A stretch of DNA of 64,000 nucleotides from Pirellulales bacterium (GTDB lineage: Bacteria > Planctomycetota > Planctomycetia > Pirellulales > PALSA-1355), in contig CAVTBU010000006.1 of NCBI GenBank assembly GCA_963733035.1, positions 64,001 to 128,000 of the forward strand, given 5' to 3'. The notes under the pieces were generated by a model. That model was not told where the DNA came from, did not search any database, and saw only the letters and a program-made list of their open reading frames with translations. The translations under genes and the position numbers were made by a program. Below, piece by piece: positions 1-12,554 of the stretch; position 1 is the first letter of the stretch; every line of letters starts with the position of its first letter.

Positions 1-448
1 GCGTGAGCTGTTCCGGTGCGGCATCGACCGCCGGACTGGCTTGGGCTTGCGTCTGCACATCGCTAGCGTCGGTGACGCTGCGATTGTCGGATTCGGTCAA
101 GTTTGACGCAGCTGGTCCTTTGGGATCTTTCGGCTGATCGCGCATGTGCGCCGGCTGGCCGGGCACTTCGCGACCGCCTGGATCGATGGGTTGTTGCTGC
201 GCAGCATCGGTTCCCAATGGAGTCGCCGGATCGGGACTCTTGGTCGTCCCTTCGACCTGCTCCATGCCGCTGGCAGCTAGTGCTTGCGCGAGTGCCAGCG
301 CGGCACCGGCGGATAACACGCGACGCTCTTCCAGAGGGCGCAACTCAAGCTGCGCGGCCAAGTCTTCTCGCGTAAGCAATGCGGGCCTGACGCACCAGTG
401 GCGGCTCAGGGCGGCGCGGAGTTCGGCCAGCTGCCTTCGCGTTCGCAT
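1..448 (-). CDS. 5' part of a putative secreted protein with a Planctomycete extracellular / LEPR-XLL-type N-terminal motif (runs off the window)
   Basis: Hand translation from ATG at 448: MRTRRQLAELRAALSRHWCVRPALLTREDLAAQLELRPLEERRVLSAGAALALAQ..., open to position 1. GGAAGAGGA RBS-like sequence upstream. LEERRVLS matches the LExRxLL motif. Not in the supplied ORF track. Confidence 0.75.
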   Translation of the reverse strand, partial: MRTRRQLAELRAALSRHWCVRPALLTREDLAAQLELRPLEERRVLSAGAALALAQALAASGMEQVEGTTKSPDPATPLGTDAAQQQPIDPGGREVPGQPAHMRDQPKDPKGPAASNLTESDNRSVTDASDVQTQAQASPAVDAAPEQLT

Positions 449-718
449 GTAACCGAATCCTCTTCCTTCCGCCAAGCGTGGTCGGAAATTGGCGTGGTTT
501 GCCCAAAGAACTCCATTATTTCTAGCCGCCCAAGCGGGCGTCAAACTTTCCGGGCCCACGTGGGGGTGGCGAGTTTGGGCAAAAGCCGTCGGCCTGAATG
601 TTTTCGCGTTTTGGCCTGAGTTTATTGCGTCGGGAGGCTGTGCCGGTTGCTCGGAGATTACTGTAGATGCCGGTTAGCGGGCGTCGAATGGGAATGTAGT
701 CGAGGGGGGATTCATCCG

Positions 719-1588
719 ATGCGATTTCGTTGCTCGTACCTGATCCTGGCCGTGGCCTTGACCGCGACGGGCTGCGCGGGCCAGTTAGCTGGGCCGATGG
801 CGGCCGGCAACAGCCTGCGCATGCTGACAGCACATGTCCCGGCCGCGCCGCCTTTGCCGCCGGCGGGCGACATCCCACGTCCACCCGAGGAGCCAGAGGG
901 GGCCCTTGTAACGGTCGGCGATACCGGTACGAACAGGTCAATCCGTGACGTAGCCACGACGGTCTCTCCAGCCGGTTTCCAGCGTCAGCCATTGTCGGCA
1001 AAGGAGCGAGCGTCGACTGTGGAGGTCGTTGCCCAGTCGGGCATTGTTCCGCCCGAGTTGGAACCCGTCGAAGAGATCGTCACTCCGATTCCAGGGCCGG
1101 AGTCTCGATTCAAATCGCAGCCGGCCGAGGACGACTTTGATCGATTTAGTCGTCAAATCGTCGATGTGCCGGTTGACATTCGTCCCAGCGAGGGCGCTAT
1201 GCCCGAAGACCGGGGTGCGGACAAGTTTGCCGCGGAGCCGATCGTGGATGAGACGCTGCCTAGCGACCGGCCGGCTGACATCTTCTGTTCGTACACGCCC
1301 TGGACGATTTGTTATCGACCGTTGTACTTCGAAGACATTGCTTTGGAGCGCTACGGCAAGAATGTCGGCTACCTGCAGACGGGGCTCTCGGGCGTCCGCT
1401 TCTTTGGCTCCGTCGCCGCTCTTCCGTATAAGATGACCCGTCGGCCGCCGCGGTCGTGTCAGTGCTCGAATGGCTTCAGCCGCCCCGGGGACTGTCCGCT
1501 ACCGGGCTATGGCAATCGTCGCTTCCAATGGGACGCGGCACTGGTCGAGGCGGCGGTCGTCACTGCGTTCGTATACATCATCCCCTAG
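719..1588 (+). CDS. Conserved planctomycete hypothetical lipoprotein
   Basis: ATG 719 after a GAGGGGG RBS. Signal peptide ends in a lipobox-like ATGC. Pro-rich linker, then the C-terminal block YRPLYFEDIALERYG...ALPYKM...RPGDC and a hydrophobic tail. Confidence 0.75.
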   Translation: MRFRCSYLILAVALTATGCAGQLAGPMAAGNSLRMLTAHVPAAPPLPPAGDIPRPPEEPEGALVTVGDTGTNRSIRDVATTVSPAGFQRQPLSAKERASTVEVVAQSGIVPPELEPVEEIVTPIPGPESRFKSQPAEDDFDRFSRQIVDVPVDIRPSEGAMPEDRGADKFAAEPIVDETLPSDRPADIFCSYTPWTICYRPLYFEDIALERYGKNVGYLQTGLSGVRFFGSVAALPYKMTRRPPRSCQCSNGFSRPGDCPLPGYGNRRFQWDAALVEAAVVTAFVYIIP

Positions 1589-1624
1589 GGGAAGGTAGAT
1601 GTTTCCGGCGACGCGGACGTCCGC

Positions 1625-3839
1625 TTAGTGCGAGAACGTCTGCTTGAGAAAGCGCACCAGTCGATCACCAAGTGTGCGCGAGGCGACTTCAATACGCGCG
1701 CGACCATGCATGCGGCCGATAAGATTCGGCGGGGCATCATCAATTTGCACGCGGGCCTGATACCAGGTGTCGAGCGGCCGTGCCGCTCCGCGGCCATCCG
1801 CTTCGGCCGGCATGTCACCGGCCGTGGCAAGTTCGCGAGGCATCACGTCCAAATCGAGTTTGGAGATCTCAATGACCTTGCCGCTGAACGATTCGCCCGG
1901 CAAGTGATCGAGCCTCAGCTGCACGCGCTGGCCGCTCTGCACGAGTTCGATGTCATTCTCGTCGACGTGCAAGATCGCTTCGAATTGATCGGGGTCGCCA
2001 ATCAGACAAAACAGCGTGCCGGTTTCCAGCGTGGTGCCGAGGTTCCGTTCGTCCAACGGTGTACCAGACCAGCTCGGCAGCGCATGTTCTTCCGGTGGTT
2101 CACGGGGCACATTCGGCGGCGGCAGAACCGTGCCGTCGATCGGGGCTTTTAGCGCGAGTCTTTTCGCGTCGTGCGCCGACTTGTTCGAGTCGTCGCTGGA
2201 GATCGACGAGGGTAGCTTTGGCCGCCGGTAATTCCGCGCCGATGGTTCCACCATGTAATCGCCGCGCTTCGAGACTCTCCACCAACAGCTTTTGTCGATC
2301 GCGGTCGGAAGTTAACTGTGCGACTTCTCGTTGGACGTCTCCGTTTTTGAGGTGCGCAATTGTGTCACCAGCTCGGACCCGCTTGCCCACCTCGGAAGTG
2401 CTAGTGATCATCCCTGTTGCCGTGACATACACATGTTGGGCGTCGCGGTACTCTAGTACGACAGGCGCGGTAACGTGCATTGGCAATGGTACGCAGGCCA
2501 GGGCAACGAGCCCGCCAGATACCAGGAACACGACCAGCGCGAAACGGGCGGGAGCCACGTTTCGGCGCGACGGATTGCGAGTCCAGTGTACGGTGCCGTC
2601 GACGATCGGCCAAAGAAGTCCGCCGATGGCCACCCCGGCTACCAGCACGACCAAAACTTCCAGGTGCAACGGACGCAAAATGCGGTCGAGCATCCACAAC
2701 ACCAGGACTACCACGAAAACGCGATAGGCCGCTGCGGCAATAGCGTAGAAAATGAGCAACGTTTGACGGCCCGCCGGCGCCAGACGCTCGGCAGGCAGGT
2801 CCAACCCCAAGCAGTACCGCGCCAGGAATCGCCGCAGGGCAGCCGACGATTGCGATTTTAGATTGGGCACTTCCACCAGGTCGGCCAGGATGTAGTAGCC
2901 GTCGTAGCGGAGCAGGGGATTTGCATTCAACAGGACCGTGCCCAGCGAACAAATCAGCACCGTGTTCAAGCACAGCGAATGAAACAACCCGGGCTGGCTG
3001 TACCACCACAAGAACGTGCATAGGGATGCGAGAATAAGTTCGACATAGATGCCCGCGGCCGAAATTGCGATGCGCTGCCACTTACTTGGCAGCATCCAGG
3101 AGTCAGATACGTTGCAGTAAAGCGTGGGCGTGAATACCAGGAGCATGATGCCCATCTCGTGACATTCACCGCCAAAATTTCGGCAGGCCAGCGCATGGCC
3201 GAGTTCATGCAGAACTTTCACTACCGCGAGGGTGATGAAGAGCCATGGTAGATTCGATGCACCGACAACGGCATCGAACTGCGGCAAACGCGCTTCCACG
3301 GCATGAAATTCAACTGTCACTAGCACGGTAGCGGCCAAGGCCAGCGCGCACGCCACACTTACGCCGATCGGTGAAAAGATCCAGCGACCAATCGGATCCA
3401 AAAAATTGAGCAGCGACCGCGGACTGATGCCAGGCAAACGAATCGCGAGCACGCTCAACAGGCTTTCGAACCGTTGACGCCGGTGCCGCTCGATTCGTCG
3501 TTCAAGCAACTTCTCGCCTTGACCGCCCGTGTCGGATTGCAGCAACCCAAATCGATGCAGCGTTGCCAAGAATCCTTGGATTTGTTCGAGTGTCAACCGC
3601 CGCGGAGCAAACGCCGTATCGCACCGACGTTTGAGTTCCTCCAGACTTGTACGACCATCGAGCATCCGAAGCAATTCGTACTCCTCGTCGCCCAAGTGAA
3701 AATACTTGAGCGCGACTGGGTCCTTCACGGCCCAATAACGCCGCTTGCCGAACTGCTGCGCGCGGAATTGAAGGTCTCTCCGCATCCGCAGGCTCAGCGG
3801 CCGGGCGGCCGCGGTTTCAGGCAGGGTCGCGGTGCTCAT
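1625..3839 (-). CDS. PqqD-like domain + M50 (site-2) metallopeptidase + HlyD/membrane-fusion domain; frameshift near 2178
   Basis: HELGH zinc motif, NANPLLRYDGYY (NPDG-type) motif, several TM segments. The C-terminal adaptor part (LKAPIDG...) continues in ORF 1625..2254 after an apparent single extra base. Confidence 0.85.
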
Positions 3840-3843
3840 GGGC

Positions 3844-4722
3844 TCACTGCTCGGCAGGTTTGGATGCAGCAATTACCATCGAGCCGTGCAGGCCGGGACG
3901 CAGCGTCAAATTGGTATTGTCGATCTCGGCCCAGATTCGGACCTGGCCATTCACCGGGTCGACTTCGGGACTGACGAACACGACCTTACCCGAATACTCA
4001 TGTGCGGCGTTGCCCTGGCGAACCACGAGCGTAACCGGTTGACCGACCAGATCATCGTTGACGGACTGCGCGTCGACGAGTCCTTCGGCTCGCAAACGGT
4101 CGAGCCGCAACATGCGCAGAACGGTTTGGCCTGGTTCGACCCATTCGCCAGGATGCCGATGGACCTGTGCGACGAATCCGGACAGCGGGGCGGCGATCCG
4201 CCGCCGGGCGACGTCGTGTTCGGCGGTCTGTACATCGTTTTCCTTGAGTTCACGAGCTGTCTTGGCGACTTCCCACTCGAGCTGCGCTTGTTCAATCTCG
4301 AGGACCGCTTTTTCCGCGGCGAGGCGGAGTTGATCGAGTTCCGATGCCGATACGCTCTCGGCCAATCGCTCTTGCGATTCGAGGGCGCGCTGCAATTCCG
4401 CAGCGGCAACTTCCGCGGATTTCCGCGCAAAACGGACTTTCACATCGCTGTCCGCCAACTTTTGAGCTCCGGCAAGTTCGAGTTCCGCCTTGCGCTTGGC
4501 GAATTTCGTGGCCGCGTCGTCGATTTGCGCGAGCATGTCCCCGGCAGCCACCATTTGACCCTCGTGTACCGAGAGTCGTTCCAGCACGCCGGCTTCGCGT
4601 GCGGGCACTTCAACCTGCTCGATCAGCTTGACGAGAACCGAGGGTACTTCGATTTCAGCCGCCCTTGCGGAGGCCCAGACCAGCGTCGAGCTGATCGCGA
4701 TCGTCAACAGTGCGCGCGCCAT
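3844..4722 (-). CDS. HlyD/RND-type periplasmic adaptor (membrane fusion protein)
   Basis: Signal peptide, lipoyl-like half motifs (VPAREAGVL...VHEGQMV; IAAPLSGFV...PGEWV), coiled coil, beta-barrel ending in LRPGLHG. Confidence 0.9.
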   Translation of the reverse strand: MARALLTIAISSTLVWASARAAEIEVPSVLVKLIEQVEVPAREAGVLERLSVHEGQMVAAGDMLAQIDDAATKFAKRKAELELAGAQKLADSDVKVRFARKSAEVAAAELQRALESQERLAESVSASELDQLRLAAEKAVLEIEQAQLEWEVAKTARELKENDVQTAEHDVARRRIAAPLSGFVAQVHRHPGEWVEPGQTVLRMLRLDRLRAEGLVDAQSVNDDLVGQPVTLVVRQGNAAHEYSGKVVFVSPEVDPVNGQVRIWAEIDNTNLTLRPGLHGSMVIAASKPAEQ

Positions 4723-4726
4723 CGTG

Positions 4727-6725
4727 TCACCACCATAAGGACTGGACGTACTCGAACAAGTCATGCAGCCACACATATCCTAGCGAACGCCGTCCACAAT
4801 GAATCTTGGCGATTGCCGTAGTCCCTGGTCGCAACGCCGGTACAGACTTTTTGTCAAAGGAAACCATCACGAGTACCGATGGCTCTTGTTGGGCATTCAT
4901 CTCGGTCGAAGGCGCCACGTCTGTTACGCGCCCGCGGTACTCGTGTCTGGGGTCCGAGGCGAGTTTGAAGACGACGTCCAGGTCGGGCTGCAGCGAATCG
5001 CGCGCGGCGAGCACGTGTCCTGCCCGATCGTCCGCGACGTGAAGTTCCAAAACCCAGGGGCCGTCGAGATCGGCAACCGAGAGCAGTGCCTGTCCACGCT
5101 GCACGGGTCGCGAGGCCAATAGTTGCTCGATGTTCCAAGTTAGCGCCTGTCCGTCGATTGGACTTCGGATGGTCAAGTCGCGTTGCTGTTCTTCGAGGAT
5201 CGCCTGCTGGGCGACAAGCCCGGCAAGGGTGGCTTTAGTTTCTTCTTCCTCGGCTGCCAGCTCGTGGGGATCGCGACGATGTTCGTTTCCGACTGGCCGG
5301 TCTTGCAGTCGTTCGGCACGAATCGAAGCCAGTTTCTTCTCCGCCGTTTGCAGCTCTCCCAGAACGCGGTGAGCTTCGAGATCGAGTTCCGCTTTTCGCA
5401 AGATCACCAGCGGTTGTCCCGCTTGCACGGCGCGATCCGAGTTGACGAACAACTCGCTTACTACGCCGTCATCGCTGGCGAACACGTCACGCCGCAAGAG
5501 CGGTTGCAGTTCGCCTCGGGCCTCAATGTCGAAACTCGCAGGAACCAGAACCAGCGCCAACCCTGCCGCCGACAGTGCGCAAGAATAGTGACCGTCTTCG
5601 GCAGCTGTCGGGCTTCAGCGAACCAGCGGATTCTGGACAGCACCCGCCCGACGCGCGCGAGGGGCAGGCGTGAATGCCTCGTGGCGTTGTCGAGTGCGGT
5701 GGCGGCATGTCCGGTCACGGCTGCCACTTGTTGACGAAGCGCATCTCCCGCAGGGATAGCCTGGAAGCACTCGGCGAGCAAAACACCGATCACGCGCGGC
5801 GATGAGGCGCTTGTTTCGTCGAGGGGCTGGCAAAGCGGCACAATCGCGAGGGCGCGCGAGTGACTTTCTTCGAGGTAGGCATCAAGTGGCTGGGCAATTT
5901 CGTCGGGTAGATCGGCGACGCCGTCATGGTACCAAACCGGCTCTCCGCAGGCGGCAACGCGCGCGGCCAGCTGCTCGAGGGCGCGCACGAGCTTGGATCG
6001 CCGTTCCACGGTATCGACGCCGCTGATCGCCGCCGTCCGTACGCGGCGTCCGCGCGCGACCAACACGCTGACTCGGTCGGCGCCGACGAGTTGCGCGCTT
6101 CGTTCGCGATTGCATAGGCAGTTGCTTCGACGTTGAGACTGCGATGCACTCGCTGTGCGAACTGGTCATACCGCCGCCATTGACCGGCTGCCGCGCGAAG
6201 TTCGCGCAGCTCACGATGGCGATGAAAGTCTTCCGCGAGTTCCGCCATGGCGCCCAAAACGCGAACGTACGACCGCACTCGCTCGGGCGAGAACTCGCGC
6301 CTTAAGACAATTTCGAGAATGCCCGCGGTGTGGTCTCCGATCTGAAAGGGCTGAAGCACAGCGGTGCACTTTGACTCGGCGTCCGAAGGATCGGCGGCCA
6401 GCATTGCGACGCGCGGTTGGCCGCTGTCGAAGACCTGCGTGACCGGCAGCCGATGGGGTGCTAGCTGTTCGGCGTTGGAAGCTCTAGCACCCTGCGCAAG
6501 ATGGAACTGATATTCCAAGCGAATGCGATCGTCCGGGCCGCGCTGCCAGACCGCGCCGCCCAAAGCTCCAAGGGCCTGAACGAGGCGATCTAGCAGCTGG
6601 CGATAGAACTCGCCAGCTAGCAGACCCGAGCGCGATCGCGACCCAATGTCGTCGAGCAGGTCTTCGATCTGCTGCCAGTCGTCGTTGGTCAGGTCGGAGT
6701 CGACCGGGAATGGATGAGAGCTCAT
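4727..6725 (-). CDS. GAF-domain + HlyD adaptor fusion; two frameshifts (~6093, ~5578)
   Basis: ORFs 5790..6725, 5461..6066 and 4727..5560 join into GAF-like regions (IANEARQLVGADRVSVL...AISGVD), a TM helix and an adaptor (IRSPIDG, LRPGTT...IHCGRRSLGYVWLH). Each junction is repaired by adding one base. Confidence 0.8.
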
Positions 6726-6887
6726 TGAGATTCAGTATAGTCGGCAAGTTGCGGAAAATGGTGTGCTTGAGAGGACGTCTTGCCGGGCCGGTTGGCGCGA
6801 AATCTGGATAAAGTTTGCCGGTTATGTCGAGATTTATAGCAGTGCGGGCGGGCGGATGGCCGATTGATGGATTTCGTGTAAGGGGGG

Positions 6888-9335
6888 TTGCGCGGGCAAT
6901 GCGCCTGCGTGGACGTTCGCGAAGGGTTCCCTTGTCTCAGGCCTGAGTTCGTTTCGAGTCAGAACGTGCCTGCTCCCCGAACAAGCTGTTCCGCATTCGT
7001 TGGGCCTGTTATTGCAAGCCGCATCGACCGGTTCGTTTGCGCGCTGCGGGCGACGGCCGCCTTTTTCGTGATGCTATCGGCGTCGGTCCTGCTGTCGGGT
7101 TGTCTGGTACTGCGACCCCCTTGCGAATTGCCGGCGGAGGACGTGTTCTTTCGCACCGTGGCCGAGGCGCCGCTGGAGGTCAAACGGGAGAATCCCGAAG
7201 GCTTCCTGCCGCTGTCGACGGCACCTCCGCTCGTGGTGGACGAGAAAGCACCTCCCCCCGCGTGGGAACTGACTCTGGCTGAGGCGGTCCGGGTGGGGCT
7301 TGAGAATTCCAAGGTGCTGCGCGATTTGGGAGGCAACGTACTGCGCCGGCCGGATTTGGCCCAGACGATTCACGATGCGGCCGTGCAAGCCACGGATCCG
7401 CGATTCGGCATGGAAGGGGCGCTGGCGGCGTTCGATGCCCAGCTTGCCACGCGTCTCTTTGCATACAAAAACGACCGTGCCTTCAACAACCTGTTTGCCG
7501 GCGGCGGTACGTTTTTCTTCAAACAGGACCTAGACAACTTCACGACAGAGCTCAGTAAGACCACCGCCACCGGTGCATCGTTCGCCGTTCGGCACAACAT
7601 CGATTACGATTCGAACAATGCTCCGGCCAACTTATTTCCCAGCTATTTCAACGCCAACTTTGAGGGCGAGTTTCGCCAGCCCCTGTTGCAGGGTGGTGGA
7701 GTCACCTTCAATCGAATTGCCGGGCCAAAGGCGAAACCCGGTCTGGTCAACGGCGTTGTCATCGCGCGCATCAACAATGACGTCAGCACGGCCACGTTTG
7801 AACTTGGCTTGCGGGACTTGATCAGCAACCTCGAAAATGGCTATTGGGATTTGTACTACGCCTATCGAGATTTGGATGCCAAAATCGCTGCTCGCGATGC
7901 CAGCCTGAAAACCTGGCGGATCATTCACGCCAACGTCGAGCAGGGGCGCGGCTACAGCAAGCTTCAGGAGGTCCAGGCGCTCGAACAGTACTACCGCTTC
8001 CAGGAAGAGGTGATCGATGCCCTGGGTGGCCGTGTTGTTGATCGCACGCGCACATTCAACGGCTCCAGCGGTGGCACCTTCCGCGGTGTCGGCGGGGTGC
8101 AAGCCGCCGAACGAAAACTCCGACTGTGGATGGGCGTGCCGATCAACGACGGTCGGCTGATACGTCCGACCGATGCGCCCCCGGAAGCGCACATCGTGTT
8201 CGACTGGAGTGTGATCATGGAAGAATCGCTGGCCACCCGTCCAGACTTGCGACGCCAGCAAGCCAAGGTGCAACGCTATCAGGCCGAATTGATTGCCAAT
8301 CGCAATTTCCTCCTGCCGCAGTTGGACATCATCGGACGGTATCGCTGGCGCGGCTACGGCCACGGTCTCATAGGCCCCCGCGACAGTCTCGATCCGATCA
8401 ATAACGCCTATGCGAACCTGGCGACCGGCATGTTCCAGGAATGGGAGCTTGGCTTCGAATACTCGATGCCGCTCGGCTTTCGACAGGGGTATGCAGCCGT
8501 CCGCAATGCCCAGGTGCAAATTGCCCGCGAGCGAGCCATTCTGGAAGAACAAGAGCGGCAGGCGATACATGATCTCACTTCGGCCTACTCCGACGCCGAG
8601 CGAGCCTACGTCCTCATGCAGGCGGCGTACAACCGACTCGCGGCCGCGGAAGAGCAGTACGAGCGGGCCGACAACGCGTTTTTCAATCTGGGGGGCAAGG
8701 TGTCGTTGGAGCTCGTCCTCGACTCTCGCATTCGTCTGGCCGAGGCAGAAACGAGTTACCACCGCAGTCGGATCGAGTATGCAATCGCCGTGAAGAACGT
8801 GCACTTCGAGAAAGGCTCGCTGCTGGATTACAACGGCGCGGCCCTGACGGATGAGGCCTTCTGCAAGGGAGCGCGCGATACGATCGTGCACCGCATTGCG
8901 TCCGCGCCAAACGAGGCACAGATCAACTACGTCATCGAAAGCCCGCTTCCCGGCACAGCGGCGCCAGAAGGTCAAACGTACGAGTCCACCGATCCAACGT
9001 CTCCGTGGCAGTCTCACGAGGCAGCATCGTACGACGAGCCGGTTGGTAGCGAAGAGGTACTAGCGTCTGCGTCGACTGCGAAAGCCGAGAGCGCGCCTGC
9101 GACTGAGTCCTCCGACACGCCGGGCGAAGTTTCGCCTTCTTCGACTTCCAAGACGACCGCGAGTTCCACGTCGCTCGTCCCCGTTGCTGTCCGGCCGGAA
9201 GCCGCGCGGACGGGACCCAAAACCGAGCGATTGCCAATTATTAAAACGCAGAAGTCGCCGGCGTCCTTCCATCAGGAGTCACTCCCACTCGATCCGTCGC
9301 AAGCGGAAGCAATCCTTGCACCGCTCGACGGGTAA
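6888..9335 (+). CDS. TolC-family outer membrane channel (planctomycete type) with a long low-complexity C-terminal tail; start uncertain
   Basis: LTLAEAVRVGLENS, YWDLYYA, RPDLRRQ, NFLLPQLD, and SRIRLAEAE helical repeats. Lipobox-like LLSGC near 7090-7105. Confidence 0.85.
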   Translation: MRGQCACVDVREGFPCLRPEFVSSQNVPAPRTSCSAFVGPVIASRIDRFVCALRATAAFFVMLSASVLLSGCLVLRPPCELPAEDVFFRTVAEAPLEVKRENPEGFLPLSTAPPLVVDEKAPPPAWELTLAEAVRVGLENSKVLRDLGGNVLRRPDLAQTIHDAAVQATDPRFGMEGALAAFDAQLATRLFAYKNDRAFNNLFAGGGTFFFKQDLDNFTTELSKTTATGASFAVRHNIDYDSNNAPANLFPSYFNANFEGEFRQPLLQGGGVTFNRIAGPKAKPGLVNGVVIARINNDVSTATFELGLRDLISNLENGYWDLYYAYRDLDAKIAARDASLKTWRIIHANVEQGRGYSKLQEVQALEQYYRFQEEVIDALGGRVVDRTRTFNGSSGGTFRGVGGVQAAERKLRLWMGVPINDGRLIRPTDAPPEAHIVFDWSVIMEESLATRPDLRRQQAKVQRYQAELIANRNFLLPQLDIIGRYRWRGYGHGLIGPRDSLDPINNAYANLATGMFQEWELGFEYSMPLGFRQGYAAVRNAQVQIARERAILEEQERQAIHDLTSAYSDAERAYVLMQAAYNRLAAAEEQYERADNAFFNLGGKVSLELVLDSRIRLAEAETSYHRSRIEYAIAVKNVHFEKGSLLDYNGAALTDEAFCKGARDTIVHRIASAPNEAQINYVIESPLPGTAAPEGQTYESTDPTSPWQSHEAASYDEPVGSEEVLASASTAKAESAPATESSDTPGEVSPSSTSKTTASSTSLVPVAVRPEAARTGPKTERLPIIKTQKSPASFHQESLPLDPSQAEAILAPLDG

Positions 9336-9339
9336 TCGG

Positions 9340-10272
9340 TCAGCAGAACGTTTTTCTCCTTTGTCTGCTGCGCTTGAGTTTACCGAGCCCTATGAGCCCG
9401 GCACCCAAGCCGAGCATCACCACGCCGGCCGGTTCCGGTACGACCGACAGTTGTAGGGTGTAATCACCGGCCGCAACATGTGCGCCAGTGAAGTTCGTAT
9501 CTACAGCGCCCGTCACGCCAATCTTGACACGACCAAGGAAATCGGCGGTGCCGACCAAGGTCGGAATCGGATCAAACAGGCTACTAGTCGCAATTCGCGT
9601 ATTCGTGGCATCATATAAACCGATCAAGGCCGCAAAGTCCGCCGTCAAGGTTGCGGTGAACGGTTCGAATGGCTGCAGGCCCGTGAAGTAAAAGAAGTCC
9701 AACGAGTCGCCGCTCCCAGGGCCGACGATGTTATTAATCGTCATGTCCACGGTATATCCGGTCCAATTTGGATTCAGTGGATCAGGTGACGTCGATGGAT
9801 CCAACCAGATGCTGTCCTTGCTAAAGGGCGATATCTCATCATTCTGCCATTGCGACAGACTCGGCACGAGTTGGCCATTCGGATCGCGCACGTCGAGGTA
9901 CCACGCGTACTTTCCTTCCTGGGTATGGTTGCCGATGAACGTGGAGTCGGGTGCGCCCGTGACTTCAAAGTAAATTGATCCATCAGGACGGATCGGCACA
10001 CCCGCGAGTTGGCTGGCGTAGTTGTTTCCAAGTGGACTGCTATTGTCGTCGCTATCGAGCAACGTGGAAAAGGACGGATCGAACAGGCCCACGATCGTAT
10101 CTGGGCGTCCGGCGGTACCGTCCAGACTATCGGAGACGATTAACTGCCCGCTCGGCAGCACGGTGGCTGTTGCCGGTGTATTGTTCGGTTCGCTGGCCAA
10201 CACCGCTGGCGCACCGACAAGCGCGGCGACCCAAAGCAAGGGCAAGAATCGTGAGAATCGTATCAAATACAT
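9340..10272 (-). CDS. PEP-CTERM sorting-domain surface protein
   Basis: N-terminal signal peptide. C-terminal VPEP + TM helix + basic KLKRSRQRRK. Confidence 0.85.
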   Translation of the reverse strand: MYLIRFSRFLPLLWVAALVGAPAVLASEPNNTPATATVLPSGQLIVSDSLDGTAGRPDTIVGLFDPSFSTLLDSDDNSSPLGNNYASQLAGVPIRPDGSIYFEVTGAPDSTFIGNHTQEGKYAWYLDVRDPNGQLVPSLSQWQNDEISPFSKDSIWLDPSTSPDPLNPNWTGYTVDMTINNIVGPGSGDSLDFFYFTGLQPFEPFTATLTADFAALIGLYDATNTRIATSSLFDPIPTLVGTADFLGRVKIGVTGAVDTNFTGAHVAAGDYTLQLSVVPEPAGVVMLGLGAGLIGLGKLKRSRQRRKTFC

Positions 10273-10670
10273 GACTGTATCTGTGTCAAATGGCCACACT
10301 TGAGGGGTCAAGTCATCGTTCGCCATGTTGAAGCGCTCAGCCTAGCGGCGCGCGATCAGCGCAGCAACTTCCCAGGCTAGGCAACAATGCAAGGCGATGA
10401 GAGTTCCCGAGAATCACGCAATCAACAGCGGCAGTGGACACGACCGCGGGGCGTGTAAGGCTCTCAGCAAAGAAGCATTGGCATTCCGAAGATTGAACAT
10501 CGACAGCTGCCACAGGCAGCATCGGACACCGATAACGGATTCAAATCTAGTCACGCCCCAGCAAGGTGTCAAGCAAGATTTATAGGAATTGAAATACTTC
10601 TAAACTGTTACGGGCATGAACTTTCGACGGCTTTGTTCGATCGCTATCAGGGGGGGCCGCGGGTCGGCGA

Positions 10671-12554
10671 TCAATCCAGATAGAGGCTTCTAAATCGCAG
10701 AAGCAGCCGCTCGGCAGGTTCGAGGTTCCGTCGCTCGCGAAGAACCTCTATTAGCCGAGATGGGTTGTTGGTGATGATGTTGTCCACTCCGCGATCGATC
10801 ATCGTCGTCATGCCGGATTGATCGTCAATCGTCCAGACGTAGATTTGTTTTCCCTGAGCGTGAGCGGCGGCAATAAAGGTATTCGTAGCCTGCGACCGTG
10901 AAACGGCCAGAAAATCGACGTCCAGCTTCGAAAGGTCGCCCAGCGTGGCCGACGTAACGAAGCCGACTGGCAGCCGCGGCTCGCGGCGCATCGTCTCCAG
11001 GGCCTCGTTGTACTCGAGTGACATTACGACGGCCTGCCCTAGCATGTCCTGGGTGCGGAGCTTTTGGATCACGGCGTCGATCAACGGCACTGGGTCGCTA
11101 CCATAGGTCTTCAGCTCGACGATCAGCTTGGCCTTGCCGCGGGTCAGCTTGATGACCTCGTCCAATGTCGGCACCTGTTCGCCAGAAAAGCTGAGTGCGC
11201 GGACTTCGTCGTACGTCGAGCGATTGACGACAAGTGGCGAACGGGCCAGGCGCATCATGTCGGCATCGTGAACGACGACCACCTGTCCGTCGCGGGTAAG
11301 CTGAACGTCGATTTCGACGTAGGTAGCGCCGTCTTCAATAGCTTGGCGCACGGCGCTGACTGTGTTCTCCGGCTTGGCGTAGGATGCCCCCCGGTGGGCG
11401 CTTATTTCGACGTGGTCGTCCCACTGGACCGGCTTGAGCAATGCGTAGACGACCATTGTCGCGAGAATCATTGCCAGTAGAGAGACCGCCAAGGGAGCTT
11501 TGCGCGGCACGGACCAGCGGGGTTTGGATTCGAGCATGGGTAGGGAGCTGAGCATCGACGGGGCAATAGACTGTCGACGACAAACTCGTAAATACAACTG
11601 CGCGAGCAATGCACCTCCGCTGGCAACGGCCAGTAGCGCGATCGCGAAATTGAGAACAAAATTCGCCGCCATGACGATGCCCAAGGTCGTGAGCAGCAGT
11701 GCCAGATGATCTCCGGCGGCGCGTACGAGTGTGCGTCCCAGCAGGTACAAACCGCCGTTCACCAGTAGCGACGTGAGTTCCCAGGCGAGCAGCCAACCGA
11801 TGAGCAAGATGAGAATCCGCCAGCGATTGCGCCTTGCGAGACGAAAACTTCGCAGCGCCGTCGAACGCAACGGATCGCCACCGAGCATCGCCTCGGGGAG
11901 CAGGAAGATCAGCGATCCGGCGACGAACGCGACGGCGACCGCGGCCAGGGCACCCAGTATGCATCCGGCAATGATGGCCTTCTTAAACTCGGGAGGGTGC
12001 TCCGCTAGGTAGTAGTTAATGTCGTGCTCGGTCAGCAGCTTCCAGGCGACGAATCCCGCGGCCGCTACAAATGGCAGTGCGGTTGCGGCCAGTAGCAAGA
12101 GCGTGAGAAAACTGGCGGCAAGCAACCGCCCACTGCGAATCGCGACGAAGCGCAAGGCTTCGAAATACGTCACACGACGGTCCAGTCCAGCACCGTAAGC
12201 GATGTAAAATAAACCTGCTGAATTGGCCGACCCCAACGCGATCGAGAGCGTCAGGATGGCCAATCCCAGTAGTAGCCCCATCGGAGTAAGCAGGAATCGC
12301 ACAATATCGAAGTTGCCCACAGCGGATTTGCCGCTGGTGGCAACGAAGCGAGCAAAAAGCCAGGCCGCAAGAGGCGAAAGGATTAGAAACGCCAGGGCCT
12401 GGAAAACCAGTTCGAATAGCACAATGTCGGGGAGGGCGCGCCCTAGGTCGTGGCAGGCGCGACGGCAAATCGCGGCGAATGAGATCGCAGAGTCCTGATC
12501 GGACGACGCACCCGCGCCTATTTGTCGCGGGCGGTCTCGAAAACCTCGATCCAT
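10671..12554 (-). CDS. Glycerophosphodiester phosphodiesterase with N-terminal membrane domain (start uncertain)
   Basis: SAHRG, PENT, EIDVQLTRDG, VVHD, ELK and WTID motifs, preceded by about 7-8 TM helices. Confidence 0.9.
   Translation of the reverse strand: MDRGFRDRPRQIGAGASSDQDSAISFAAICRRACHDLGRALPDIVLFELVFQALAFLILSPLAAWLFARFVATSGKSAVGNFDIVRFLLTPMGLLLGLAILTLSIALGSANSAGLFYIAYGAGLDRRVTYFEALRFVAIRSGRLLAASFLTLLLLAATALPFVAAAGFVAWKLLTEHDINYYLAEHPPEFKKAIIAGCILGALAAVAVAFVAGSLIFLLPEAMLGGDPLRSTALRSFRLARRNRWRILILLIGWLLAWELTSLLVNGGLYLLGRTLVRAAGDHLALLLTTLGIVMAANFVLNFAIALLAVASGGALLAQLYLRVCRRQSIAPSMLSSLPMLESKPRWSVPRKAPLAVSLLAMILATMVVYALLKPVQWDDHVEISAHRGASYAKPENTVSAVRQAIEDGATYVEIDVQLTRDGQVVVVHDADMMRLARSPLVVNRSTYDEVRALSFSGEQVPTLDEVIKLTRGKAKLIVELKTYGSDPVPLIDAVIQKLRTQDMLGQAVVMSLEYNEALETMRREPRLPVGFVTSATLGDLSKLDVDFLAVSRSQATNTFIAAAHAQGKQIYVWTIDDQSGMTTMIDRGVDNIITNNPSRLIEVLRERRNLEPAERLLLRFRSLYLD

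Follow-up and report, generated by a model that had tools for sequence, protein, structure and literature searches.

Many large surface proteins of planctomycetes start with a non-hydrophobic signal that is common to the giant LEPR-XLL proteins of other phyla, and the question is which machinery could recognize such a signal and export the proteins that carry it. A candidate subunit of such a machinery is encoded at positions 1625–3839, on the minus strand, of the 64,000-nt stretch of a Pirellulales bacterium genome that we analysed (contig CAVTBU010000006.1, positions 64,001–128,000; called the window hereafter). Its product joins a PqqD-like recognition element of the kind known from pathways for peptides that ribosomes synthesize and that are modified after translation (RiPPs), an M50 intramembrane protease and a membrane-fusion (HlyD-type) adaptor domain. 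The identity of this protein and of the module to which it belongs is secure. From sequence comparison, we put at an even chance that the gene is a frameshifted copy of the RRE–M50–adaptor subunit (RRE, RiPP recognition element) in a conserved envelope module that reads and removes leaders for export. Fusions of an RRE to a site-2 protease were already known, as were the locus (a computer prediction from 2015) and the leader (described in 2004 and curated as NF012209). This work adds the finding that the copy is frameshifted, an intact paralogue and a phylum-wide co-occurrence test; our literature search found no paper that joins the module and the leader. For the window itself the message is more modest: its copy is interrupted, and the set of genes was already published in 2015 as a computer-predicted locus.

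The gene consists of the following parts, where residue numbers refer to the 579-aa frame that begins at the ATG at 3839:

3534–3794, minus strand: RRE (PqqD-like) domain, residues 16–102 (AF2 model, Foldseek, VIA)
3420–3533, minus strand: basic linker helix and conserved LAIR strand, residues 103–140 (orthologue model; L131, A132 and R134 invariant)
2484–3419, minus strand: M50 (site-2 protease) membrane domain, residues 141–452, seven hydrophobic segments (PF02163; hydropathy)
3195–3209, minus strand: HELGH zinc-binding motif (read in the sequence; H211, E212 and H215 invariant)
2898–2921, minus strand: NPLLRYDG motif (read in the sequence; N307, P308, L309, R311, D313 and G314 invariant)
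2178–2483, minus strand: membrane-fusion (HlyD-type) domain, first part, residues 453–554, in the protease frame (aligns with relatives up to ...RRLEQV)
2174–2177, minus strand: frameshift site, four bases in place of one codon (alignments with relatives)
1625–2173, minus strand: remainder of the membrane-fusion domain in a different frame, stop at 1625–1627 (HlyD_D23, HlyD_3; 62.5% identity to residues 552–735 of the L003 orthologue)

An earlier note on this DNA, made from the sequence alone, had taken 1625–3839 to be a single gene. The interval comprises 2215 nt, which is no multiple of three, so as called it must span a frameshift. The open reading frame (ORF) opens at 3872 and, read from the called ATG, ends after 579 aa at a stop at 2100–2102; the remainder of the adaptor domain is found in a second minus-strand ORF, in another frame, at 1625–2254. 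When the 737-aa L003 orthologue was aligned to the DNA, its residues 7–553 fell on the frame at 3818–2181 and its residues 552–735 on the other frame at 2185–1634. The surplus base is located at 2174–2177. In an alignment of 28 family members, the window protein keeps to the family until '...RRLEQV' and then departs from it, while the second frame resumes with '...KRLALKAPIDGTVLPPPNV...' and matches the relatives. The adaptor domain thus changes frame, and the single-gene reading was not borne out. More than 4,780 relatives of the RRE–M50–adaptor protein were returned by a database search; among the best 120, the full-length ones nearly all measure 735–750 aa, and the nearest has 738 aa and 77% identity. 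A programmed frameshift at 2174–2177 was considered and rejected, because there is no slippery run at the site and relatives of 737–741 aa are encoded in a single frame.

The predicted structure of the N-terminal module supports its assignment as an RRE-type winged helix. An AF2 model of residues 16–122, calculated from 37 aligned sequences, has a pLDDT of 89.4 and features an N-terminal four-stranded sheet followed by three helices. DSSP assigns strands to model positions 2–4, 9–15, 18–25 and 30–34 and helices to 36–44, 51–61 and 69–81, the arrangement of a winged helix-turn-helix. In a Foldseek search with this model, ranks 1–10 were all RiPP leader-binding domains (TbiB1, PqqD, LynD, lasso B1 and TigE), with CteB, TruD and ThcOx just below them; the best match has an E-value of 3.4e-3 and a TMt of 0.66, and none reaches E ≤ 0.001. 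VIA-align gave Z scores of 10.0 to TbiB1 (5v1v_A; root mean square deviation 3.3, 85 residues aligned), 9.9 to TigE, 9.8 to lasso B1 (6jx3_B), 8.8 to MccB, 8.2 to LynD, 7.9 to PqqD (5sxy) and 7.7 to the RRE of PbtF; a rickettsial methyltransferase domain of unrelated function (PKMT2, 5doo_A) likewise reaches 10.0. The module has the winged-helix fold in common with the stand-alone RREs (lasso B1 5v1v and 6jx3, PqqD 5sxy and 3g2b), with 83–85 residues aligned, and differs from them in sequence, at 14–20% identity, and in being fused to a membrane protease.

Residues K24, P26, L29, Y31, L79 and L84 are invariant in the 37 sequences, and H80 and G83 nearly so; these residues map to strands 2–3 and the end of helix 3, which we take to be the leader-clamping elements of known RREs. 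Among relatives, the Pfam PqqD family matches 16 of 28 at E ≤ 0.1, the best at 4.8e-4. Two homologues derived from related loci stay below its cut-off of 23.4 bits (L055 with 21.5 bits, L036 with 17.4 bits), and a Methylosinus homologue clears it with 28.7 bits. In RefSeq, homologues from Proteobacteria already bear the name 'PqqD family protein' or 'PqqD family peptide modification chaperone'. When the RRE domain was co-folded with residues 1–66 of the candidate cargo next to the operon, the run gave no answer (score 0.00); it was made without controls and carries no weight either way.

The protease domain matches Pfam M50 (PF02163) with 37.1 bits against a gathering score of 27.2. Its HELGH motif (residues 211–215) is embedded in a hydrophobic segment at about residues 195–218, as expected for an HExxH sequence within a transmembrane helix, and the second M50 motif, of the NxxPxxxxDG type, is present as NPLLRYDG (residues 307–314), the aspartate of which is presumably a zinc ligand. 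The columns H211, E212, H215, N307, P308, D313 and G314 are invariant in the 28 aligned family members, which confirms that both zinc-site motifs are intact, as the earlier note had said. The downstream piece scores 31.3 bits on HlyD_D23 (cut-off 30) and 24.7 bits on HlyD_3 (cut-off 22.2). Together with the model of an orthologue, these matches identify the lipoyl, α-hairpin and β-barrel parts of a membrane-fusion protein. That full-length model, of the 738-aa orthologue (pLDDT 81.6), comprises the RRE (residues 17–102), a basic helix (108–131), a strand (134–138), a helical membrane domain with a β-hairpin after the HExxH helix, and, from residue 452, an adaptor with an α-hairpin (501–560) and barrel strands. 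Its best matches in the PDB are MacA, MexA, AcrA, ZneB and EmrA, with E-values from 1e-13 to 1e-11 (MacA 3fpp_A, 1.2e-13). Hydropathy analysis of the window protein gave seven membrane segments with positive-inside loops, so that the RRE would face the cytoplasm and the adaptor domain the periplasm.

The gene is the third of a minus-strand operon. The other operon genes and the adjacent genes are:

4727–6725, minus strand: first operon gene, a GAF–membrane-fusion protein split over three frames (tblastn with the 672-aa L003 protein)
3844–4776, minus strand: second operon gene, a membrane-fusion protein of 310 aa, intact, its stop 4 nt before the ATG at 3839 (HlyD_3 76.6 bits, TIGR01730 108.7 bits)
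6888–9335, plus strand: divergent TolC-like outer-membrane factor, 815 aa, intact (PF02321 OEP 68.7 bits)
647–1588, plus strand: convergent 313-aa ORF, its start lipoprotein-like, located between operon and cargo gene (no Pfam or NCBIfam match)
2–448, minus strand: candidate cargo, the N-terminal part of a 1312-codon ORF with a probable start at ATG 446–448 and a basic N-terminus (regular-expression search; contig)

By tblastn with the L003 protein, the pieces of the first gene lie at 6725–6093, 6138–5581 and 5554–4730, which means two frameshifts, near 6093–6138 and 5554–5581; its relatives (about 670–700 aa) carry GAF and HlyD domains. An intact paralogous operon encoding proteins of 672, 310 and 746 aa is present on the same contig, 430 kb away (C6:494907–500211). 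The leader of the candidate cargo, LELRPLEERRVLS, is encoded at 311–334 (minus strand), 38 residues into an ORF that leaves the window. It is the sole regular-expression match in the window and is conserved in three orthologues. Only 1.2 kb separate the end of the operon from this leader-bearing gene. The convergent 313-aa gene lies in between, so the cargo gene cannot be co-transcribed with the operon.

To see which parts of this arrangement are general, we compared the 80 best of the related loci (of 600 candidate stretches, 589 proved genuine), all of them from Planctomycetota bins or isolates except one record titled 'bacterium'. The conserved core has the order GAF-adaptor (about 670–700 aa), adaptor (about 310–340 aa) and RRE–M50–adaptor as the third gene. 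Upstream of the M50 gene, the small adaptor has homologues in 67 of the loci; for the first gene, the adaptor half is represented in 61 and the GAF half in 59. Many of the loci are cut by contig ends. The TolC-like protein, the 313-aa ORF and the cargo have homologues in 6, 5 and 4 of the 80 loci, in closer relatives only, the 313-aa ORF keeping its relative strand. Beyond the three core genes, no flanking gene of at least 150 aa is generally conserved, the largest cluster reaching 11 of the 80 loci. Among ORFs of 30–140 aa near the core, DUF3467 is the sole conserved family, the next two clusters being its opposite-strand shadows. In 22 of the 80 loci, a DUF3467 gene lies no farther than 2.5 kb from the core, 19 times downstream on the same strand and three times upstream, with a median gap of 102 bp.

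This core has been described before. Around 'secondary SecA_DEAD' proteins, Kamneva, Poudel and Ward (2015, PLoS One; PMC4452313) described by computer a locus that they related to type I secretion. In their account of it, the SecA-like protein is proposed to be the ATPase and the M50 protein the membrane component, the GAF protein is given a regulatory or sensory role, and the biological role of the locus is called unknown. The gene set is the same as ours: GAF+HlyD, HlyD and Peptidase_M50+HlyD, sometimes OEP, and a truncated SecA that is encoded elsewhere in some genomes, as it is in this one. Since the GAF+HlyD, HlyD and M50+HlyD genes stand together in the window, two of the three frameshifted, the window operon is, judged by gene content, a member of this locus type. 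In the same account, 'PqqD' has 0 occurrences, and substrates, DUF3467 and leader-bearing giants do not appear.

A truncated SecA_DEAD protein was not found in the neighbourhood of the window genes by Pfam or NCBIfam. The one short SecA of this genome has 668 aa (C7:169949–171955) and contains SecA_DEAD, PP_bind and P-loop domains; no adaptor genes were found near it on C7. Of the 30 module-bearing genomes in a phylum-wide sample, at least 14 have a short SecA no more than 3 kb from the M50 gene. For the module described here, the likely motor is the truncated SecA on C7. As a side observation, in two complete genomes of the same class (G068, C1:2137694–2145600; G090, C1:1198498–1206395), there are two short SecA genes, and one of them has two LEDRTLL-type leader genes as neighbours, within 1 and 6 kb. 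The M50 operons of these genomes are located elsewhere, which means that the parts of the system are scattered in this lineage.

The second line of evidence concerns the leader. A paper on the Tuwongella proteome (PMC8567305) cites Studholme et al. 2004 for a planctomycete export signal, RRLxxExLExRxLLA; the citing passage names no export route for it. In the window cargo and in other ORFs of the genome, a basic stretch at the start precedes ExLExRxLL[S/T/A], a motif that these ORFs share with this signal, with the LEPR-XLL family NF012209 and with the giants next to the module in Proteobacteria; unlike NF012209, the planctomycete leaders are mostly without proline. The motif occurs near the start of 41 ORFs of the genome, about 35 of which, by eye, also have a basic N-region, and a degenerate DNA pattern found 38 sites against 8 for its reversed control. 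The leader is carried by about 35–40 large proteins of this genome and is not special to this cluster. Two of its occurrences lie close to other parts of the module: an ORF with the leader, longer than 2,300 codons, has the genome's only DUF3467 gene about 600 bp upstream of it, and a leader gene lies 8.5 kb downstream of the intact paralogous operon. In G068 and G090, a short SecA gene is found less than 1 kb from LEDRTLL genes. Three large ORFs of this genome (C4:307364, C9:206234 and C5:645046) are nearly identical in their leaders and opening residues (…FSSLRLEALEQRHLLTATVVEVTTTQDVIDP), which gives them the look of recent paralogues or of a repeated leader-gene element.

We compared the occurrence of leader and module in 121 Planctomycetota genomes, drawn evenly across the phylum, scoring the module as present at a match of E ≤ 1e-30. 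The motif excess over the control averages 3.9 (median 3) in the 30 genomes with the module and -0.14 (median 0) in the 91 without it. The one-sided Mann–Whitney p-value is 1.2e-4, 2.7e-4 when this genome is left out and 0.011 on family means, values that overstate the case because the sampled genomes are related. All five genomes with an excess of at least 10 contain the module, as do six of the seven with an excess of at least 7. Across the sample, an excess of the motif is confined almost entirely to module-bearing genomes. In the two module-less genomes with an excess of 5–6, the matches are only internal or spurious, and a profile of the RRE found no match in five module-less genomes.

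An independent phylum, the Proteobacteria, gave further support. A tblastn search against plasmids returned 80 records, of which we opened eight, seven of them annotated. In six of the seven (Methylosinus, Pontibrevibacter, Mesorhizobium, Pseudosulfitobacter, Thalassospira and Burkholderia), the module comes immediately after a giant gene of 9.9–38.7 kb on the same strand; the seventh, Azospirillum, has an orphan M50–adaptor gene. Five of the six giants have clear LEPR-XLL-type N-termini and one has a variant. Three carry the RefSeq label 'LEPR-XLL domain-containing protein', and the Methylosinus giant scores 30.6 bits on NF012209 (cut-off 17). Read by eye, the N-terminus of the Mesorhizobium giant consists of a basic stretch and then FEALEPRLLLSAD, and the Burkholderia giant has the variant LALEPRVVYDAS. 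No ABC (ATP-binding cassette) transporter is annotated in the six module-bearing plasmid loci. We also observed that a truncated SecA-like gene is labelled 'prepilin peptidase' by RefSeq in Methylosinus (L101:16219–18135) and Pseudosulfitobacter (L106:15020–17044) and 'DEAD/DEAH box helicase' in two other loci; by Pfam, the Methylosinus gene encodes SecA_DEAD (347 bits), PP_bind and a SecA P-loop. In Pseudosulfitobacter, a SapC family gene (L106:14206–15027) lies between the M50–adaptor and SecA-like genes, and none was seen in the other loci opened.

How could these parts work together? The module would consist of the GAF-adaptor, the small adaptor, the RRE–M50–adaptor and the TolC-like channel, together with a truncated SecA-like ATPase and a DUF3467 protein encoded elsewhere. 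The cytoplasmic RRE head may bind large surface proteins by their short N-terminal leader, ExLExRxLL (LEPR-XLL-type), and hand this leader to the membrane-embedded zinc site, where it would be removed. The C-terminal adaptor domain and the two other adaptors would bridge to the TolC-like channel, and the truncated SecA could supply the energy instead of an ABC transporter. The data show the identities of the domains, the fold, the intact motifs, the topology by hydropathy, the conservation of the operon, and the co-occurrence and adjacency with giant genes that bear the leader; that the protein binds and cleaves the peptide, that export follows and that SecA takes part is what we infer from them. 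Recognition of the LExRxLL leader is supported indirectly, by the co-occurrence across the phylum and by the adjacency on plasmids. That the RRE reads the leader and that the M50 domain cuts or gates the cargo, as the earlier note had proposed, is the best available explanation of these comparative data. We further suggest, tentatively and on the doubtful side of even, that this is a distinct pathway without an ABC transporter, linked to TolC and driven by a truncated SecA, in which the RRE–M50–adaptor protein acts as both signal receptor and signal peptidase for ExLExRxLL/LEPR-XLL proteins.

If the module reads and removes the leader, it would represent a secretion system of a new kind and put the leader-recognition fold of RiPP pathways to a new use, as the first RiPP-type recognition element to read a protein-secretion signal. 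In Proteobacteria, the pathway would serve one giant neighbour gene, and in Planctomycetota it would have turned into a general route by which surface proteins, dispersed and dozens in number, are sorted. It would also account for an observation made in Rhodopirellula in 2004, the 'novel export signal'.

Several results weigh against the proposal that the module reads and removes this leader. At the level of sequence, Pfam PqqD (PF05402) gave nothing at E ≤ 0.1 on the window copy (gathering score 23.4 bits), and a profile of the 37 N-terminal domains found PqqD among PDB sequences only at E-values of 0.59 (3g2b_A) and 0.91 (5sxy_A), among unrelated matches and not significant. The PqqD/RRE-like N-terminus of the earlier note consequently stands as a fold, by AF2, Foldseek and VIA, and not by Pfam PqqD on the window copy. 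NF012209 (LEPR-8K; cut-off 17 bits) returned nothing at E ≤ 1 on two planctomycete leaders, that of the window ORF at 2–448 and that of the giant on C5. At the level of gene position, the cargo mostly does not lie next to the module in Planctomycetota. The 80 Planctomycetota loci (1.07 Mb) contain eight regular-expression matches, about five of them true leaders; this is near the genome-wide density, so that an enrichment of leader genes beside the module finds no support there. In G068, G090 and G001, more than 200 kb lie between the M50 genes and the motif genes nearest to them. In the phylum sample, besides the relatedness of the genomes, no more than nine candidates were scored per genome, and 10 of the 30 module-bearing genomes show no motif excess under the DNA pattern. 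Finally, the window operon itself is broken within 5.1 kb by three frameshifts, of which the GAF-adaptor gene has two and the M50 gene one.

The closest relatives with an assigned function suggest another reading, namely that the module is a leader peptidase and exporter for small RiPP- or bacteriocin-type peptides, as in daptide clusters, and not for giants. RREs are otherwise known from RiPP pathways, and the best NCBIfam match of the window protein is the daptide intramembrane metalloprotease family NF041824 (E 7.6e-55), followed by the YydH/LiaK epipeptide protease family NF058609 (E 7.2e-12). The match to NF041824 extends over residues 54–422 of the 590-aa frame and positions 25–367 of the 379 in the model, and therefore includes the N-terminal module. 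At 186.6 bits, it remains well below the 300-bit cut-off of this equivalog family, and two relatives score 173–184 bits. Daptide proteases of the MpaP type are described as having an RRE fused N-terminally to an intramembrane site-2 protease that removes the leader (Ren et al. 2023, bioRxiv 10.1101/2023.03.08.531785). The window protein has in common with them the order of RRE and M50 domain, homology over about 370 residues and the proposed RRE-guided removal of a leader. It differs by an additional C-terminal membrane-fusion domain of about 290 aa, which is not described for daptide proteases in what that account says of them. The genomic context differs too. In a Pfam and NCBIfam scan of nine neighbouring ORFs, only adaptor, OEP, PEP-CTERM and glycerophosphodiester phosphodiesterase matches were found, and no ABC transporter, aminotransferase, oxidoreductase or methyltransferase; no tailoring genes thus lie near the window operon. 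In the 80 loci, no conserved short precursor was found near the core, DUF3467 being the one conserved small ORF family. The host is a diderm planctomycete, the setting is TolC-linked, and the candidate clients have from a thousand to more than ten thousand residues. We consider a small-peptide system very improbable.

The M50 and GAF domains would also be compatible with signalling, in which the protease carries out regulated intramembrane proteolysis of a membrane regulator, the GAF protein is the sensor and the adaptors are only periplasmic scaffolds. Site-2 proteases classically cleave anti-sigma factors. The first gene has cytoplasmic GAF domains, and a regulatory or sensory role is what Kamneva et al. 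(PMC4452313), in their account of the locus, give to its product. There is, however, no sigma or anti-sigma gene among the conserved neighbours; three adaptors, a TolC-like channel and a SecA-type ATPase indicate transport, and signalling would leave the link to leader-bearing giants unexplained. This makes it a poor candidate, to which we assign little probability; like the RiPP-type alternative, it fits the conserved neighbours poorly.

The export reading itself was first drawn by analogy with the C39 peptidase-containing ABC transporters. These transporters and the type I systems (HlyB–HlyD–TolC, LapBCE) combine an adaptor with a TolC-type channel, and the C39 domain is part of the inner-membrane component of the former. 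The resemblance lies in the adaptor and channel, in a leader-recognizing protease that is built into the inner-membrane component, and in giant repetitive clients. In contrast to these systems, the module has an intramembrane metalloprotease in place of the C39 cysteine protease, an N-terminal signal in place of a C-terminal RTX-type signal, three different adaptors and a SecA-like ATPase, with no ABC transporter among the neighbours. Given this absence, the intramembrane protease and the likely SecA motor, the analogy holds for the logic only, and the module cannot be classed as a classical type I system.

A different question is whether this particular copy works. As assembled, the frameshift prevents it from yielding a full-length protein, and the intact paralogous operon could do the work. 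That the window operon is a decaying pseudo-operon, with only the operon at C6:494907–500211 functional and its own domains mere relics, is a serious contender that we place just short of an even chance. The three breaks contrast with the open state of their surroundings: the middle adaptor, the TolC-like gene (815 codons), the cargo (1312 codons), a 1680-codon ORF and the whole paralogous operon. A relative's contig, about 96% identical over the piece, carries one extra base behind 6091, at one of the break sites. Two modules stand against a single short SecA in this genome, whereas G068 and G090 each have two modules and two short SecA genes; at a completeness of 92%, however, a second SecA may merely be missing from the assembly. 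The encoded protein, by contrast, shows no decay. Its catalytic motifs are intact, and it has one unique change at otherwise invariant columns, the range in the 28 members being 0–6. Since the genome resembles a long-read metagenome bin (10 contigs, the largest of 3 Mb) and similar gene splits occur in three other bins of the 80 loci (L047, L049 and L056), assembly indels are a real alternative. Five public soil-metagenome runs, none of them recorded as RNA, contain parts of 1600–6800. For the M50 frameshift, no contig from four of these runs covers 2122–2643, and coverage elsewhere is patchy, at a depth of 2–5. Recent pseudogenization and local assembly indels are about equally well placed to explain the breaks.

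The remaining genes around the operon offer some further observations. The OEP domain of the TolC-like protein covers only residues 445–637, and its N-terminal ~400 residues have no family match in Pfam or NCBIfam. The 313-aa ORF, which likewise matches no Pfam or NCBIfam family, contains an internal methionine followed by a lipoprotein-like signal (…LAVALTATGC…) and has a cysteine-rich C-terminal part. Beyond the TolC-like gene, the minus strand encodes a 328-aa protein with a C-terminal PEP-CTERM sorting signal (9340–10326; TIGR02595, 19 bits, cut-off 16) and a 627-aa glycerophosphodiester phosphodiesterase with a membrane anchor (10671–12554); both genes keep synteny with the operon in its closest relatives only. 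Directly after the cargo ORF on contig C6, 8,429 to 3,387 bases before the start of the window (minus strand), lies an ORF of 1680 aa that opens with a zinc-ribbon-like CPGC…CPHC pattern and has weak homologues near the module in 5 of the 80 loci.

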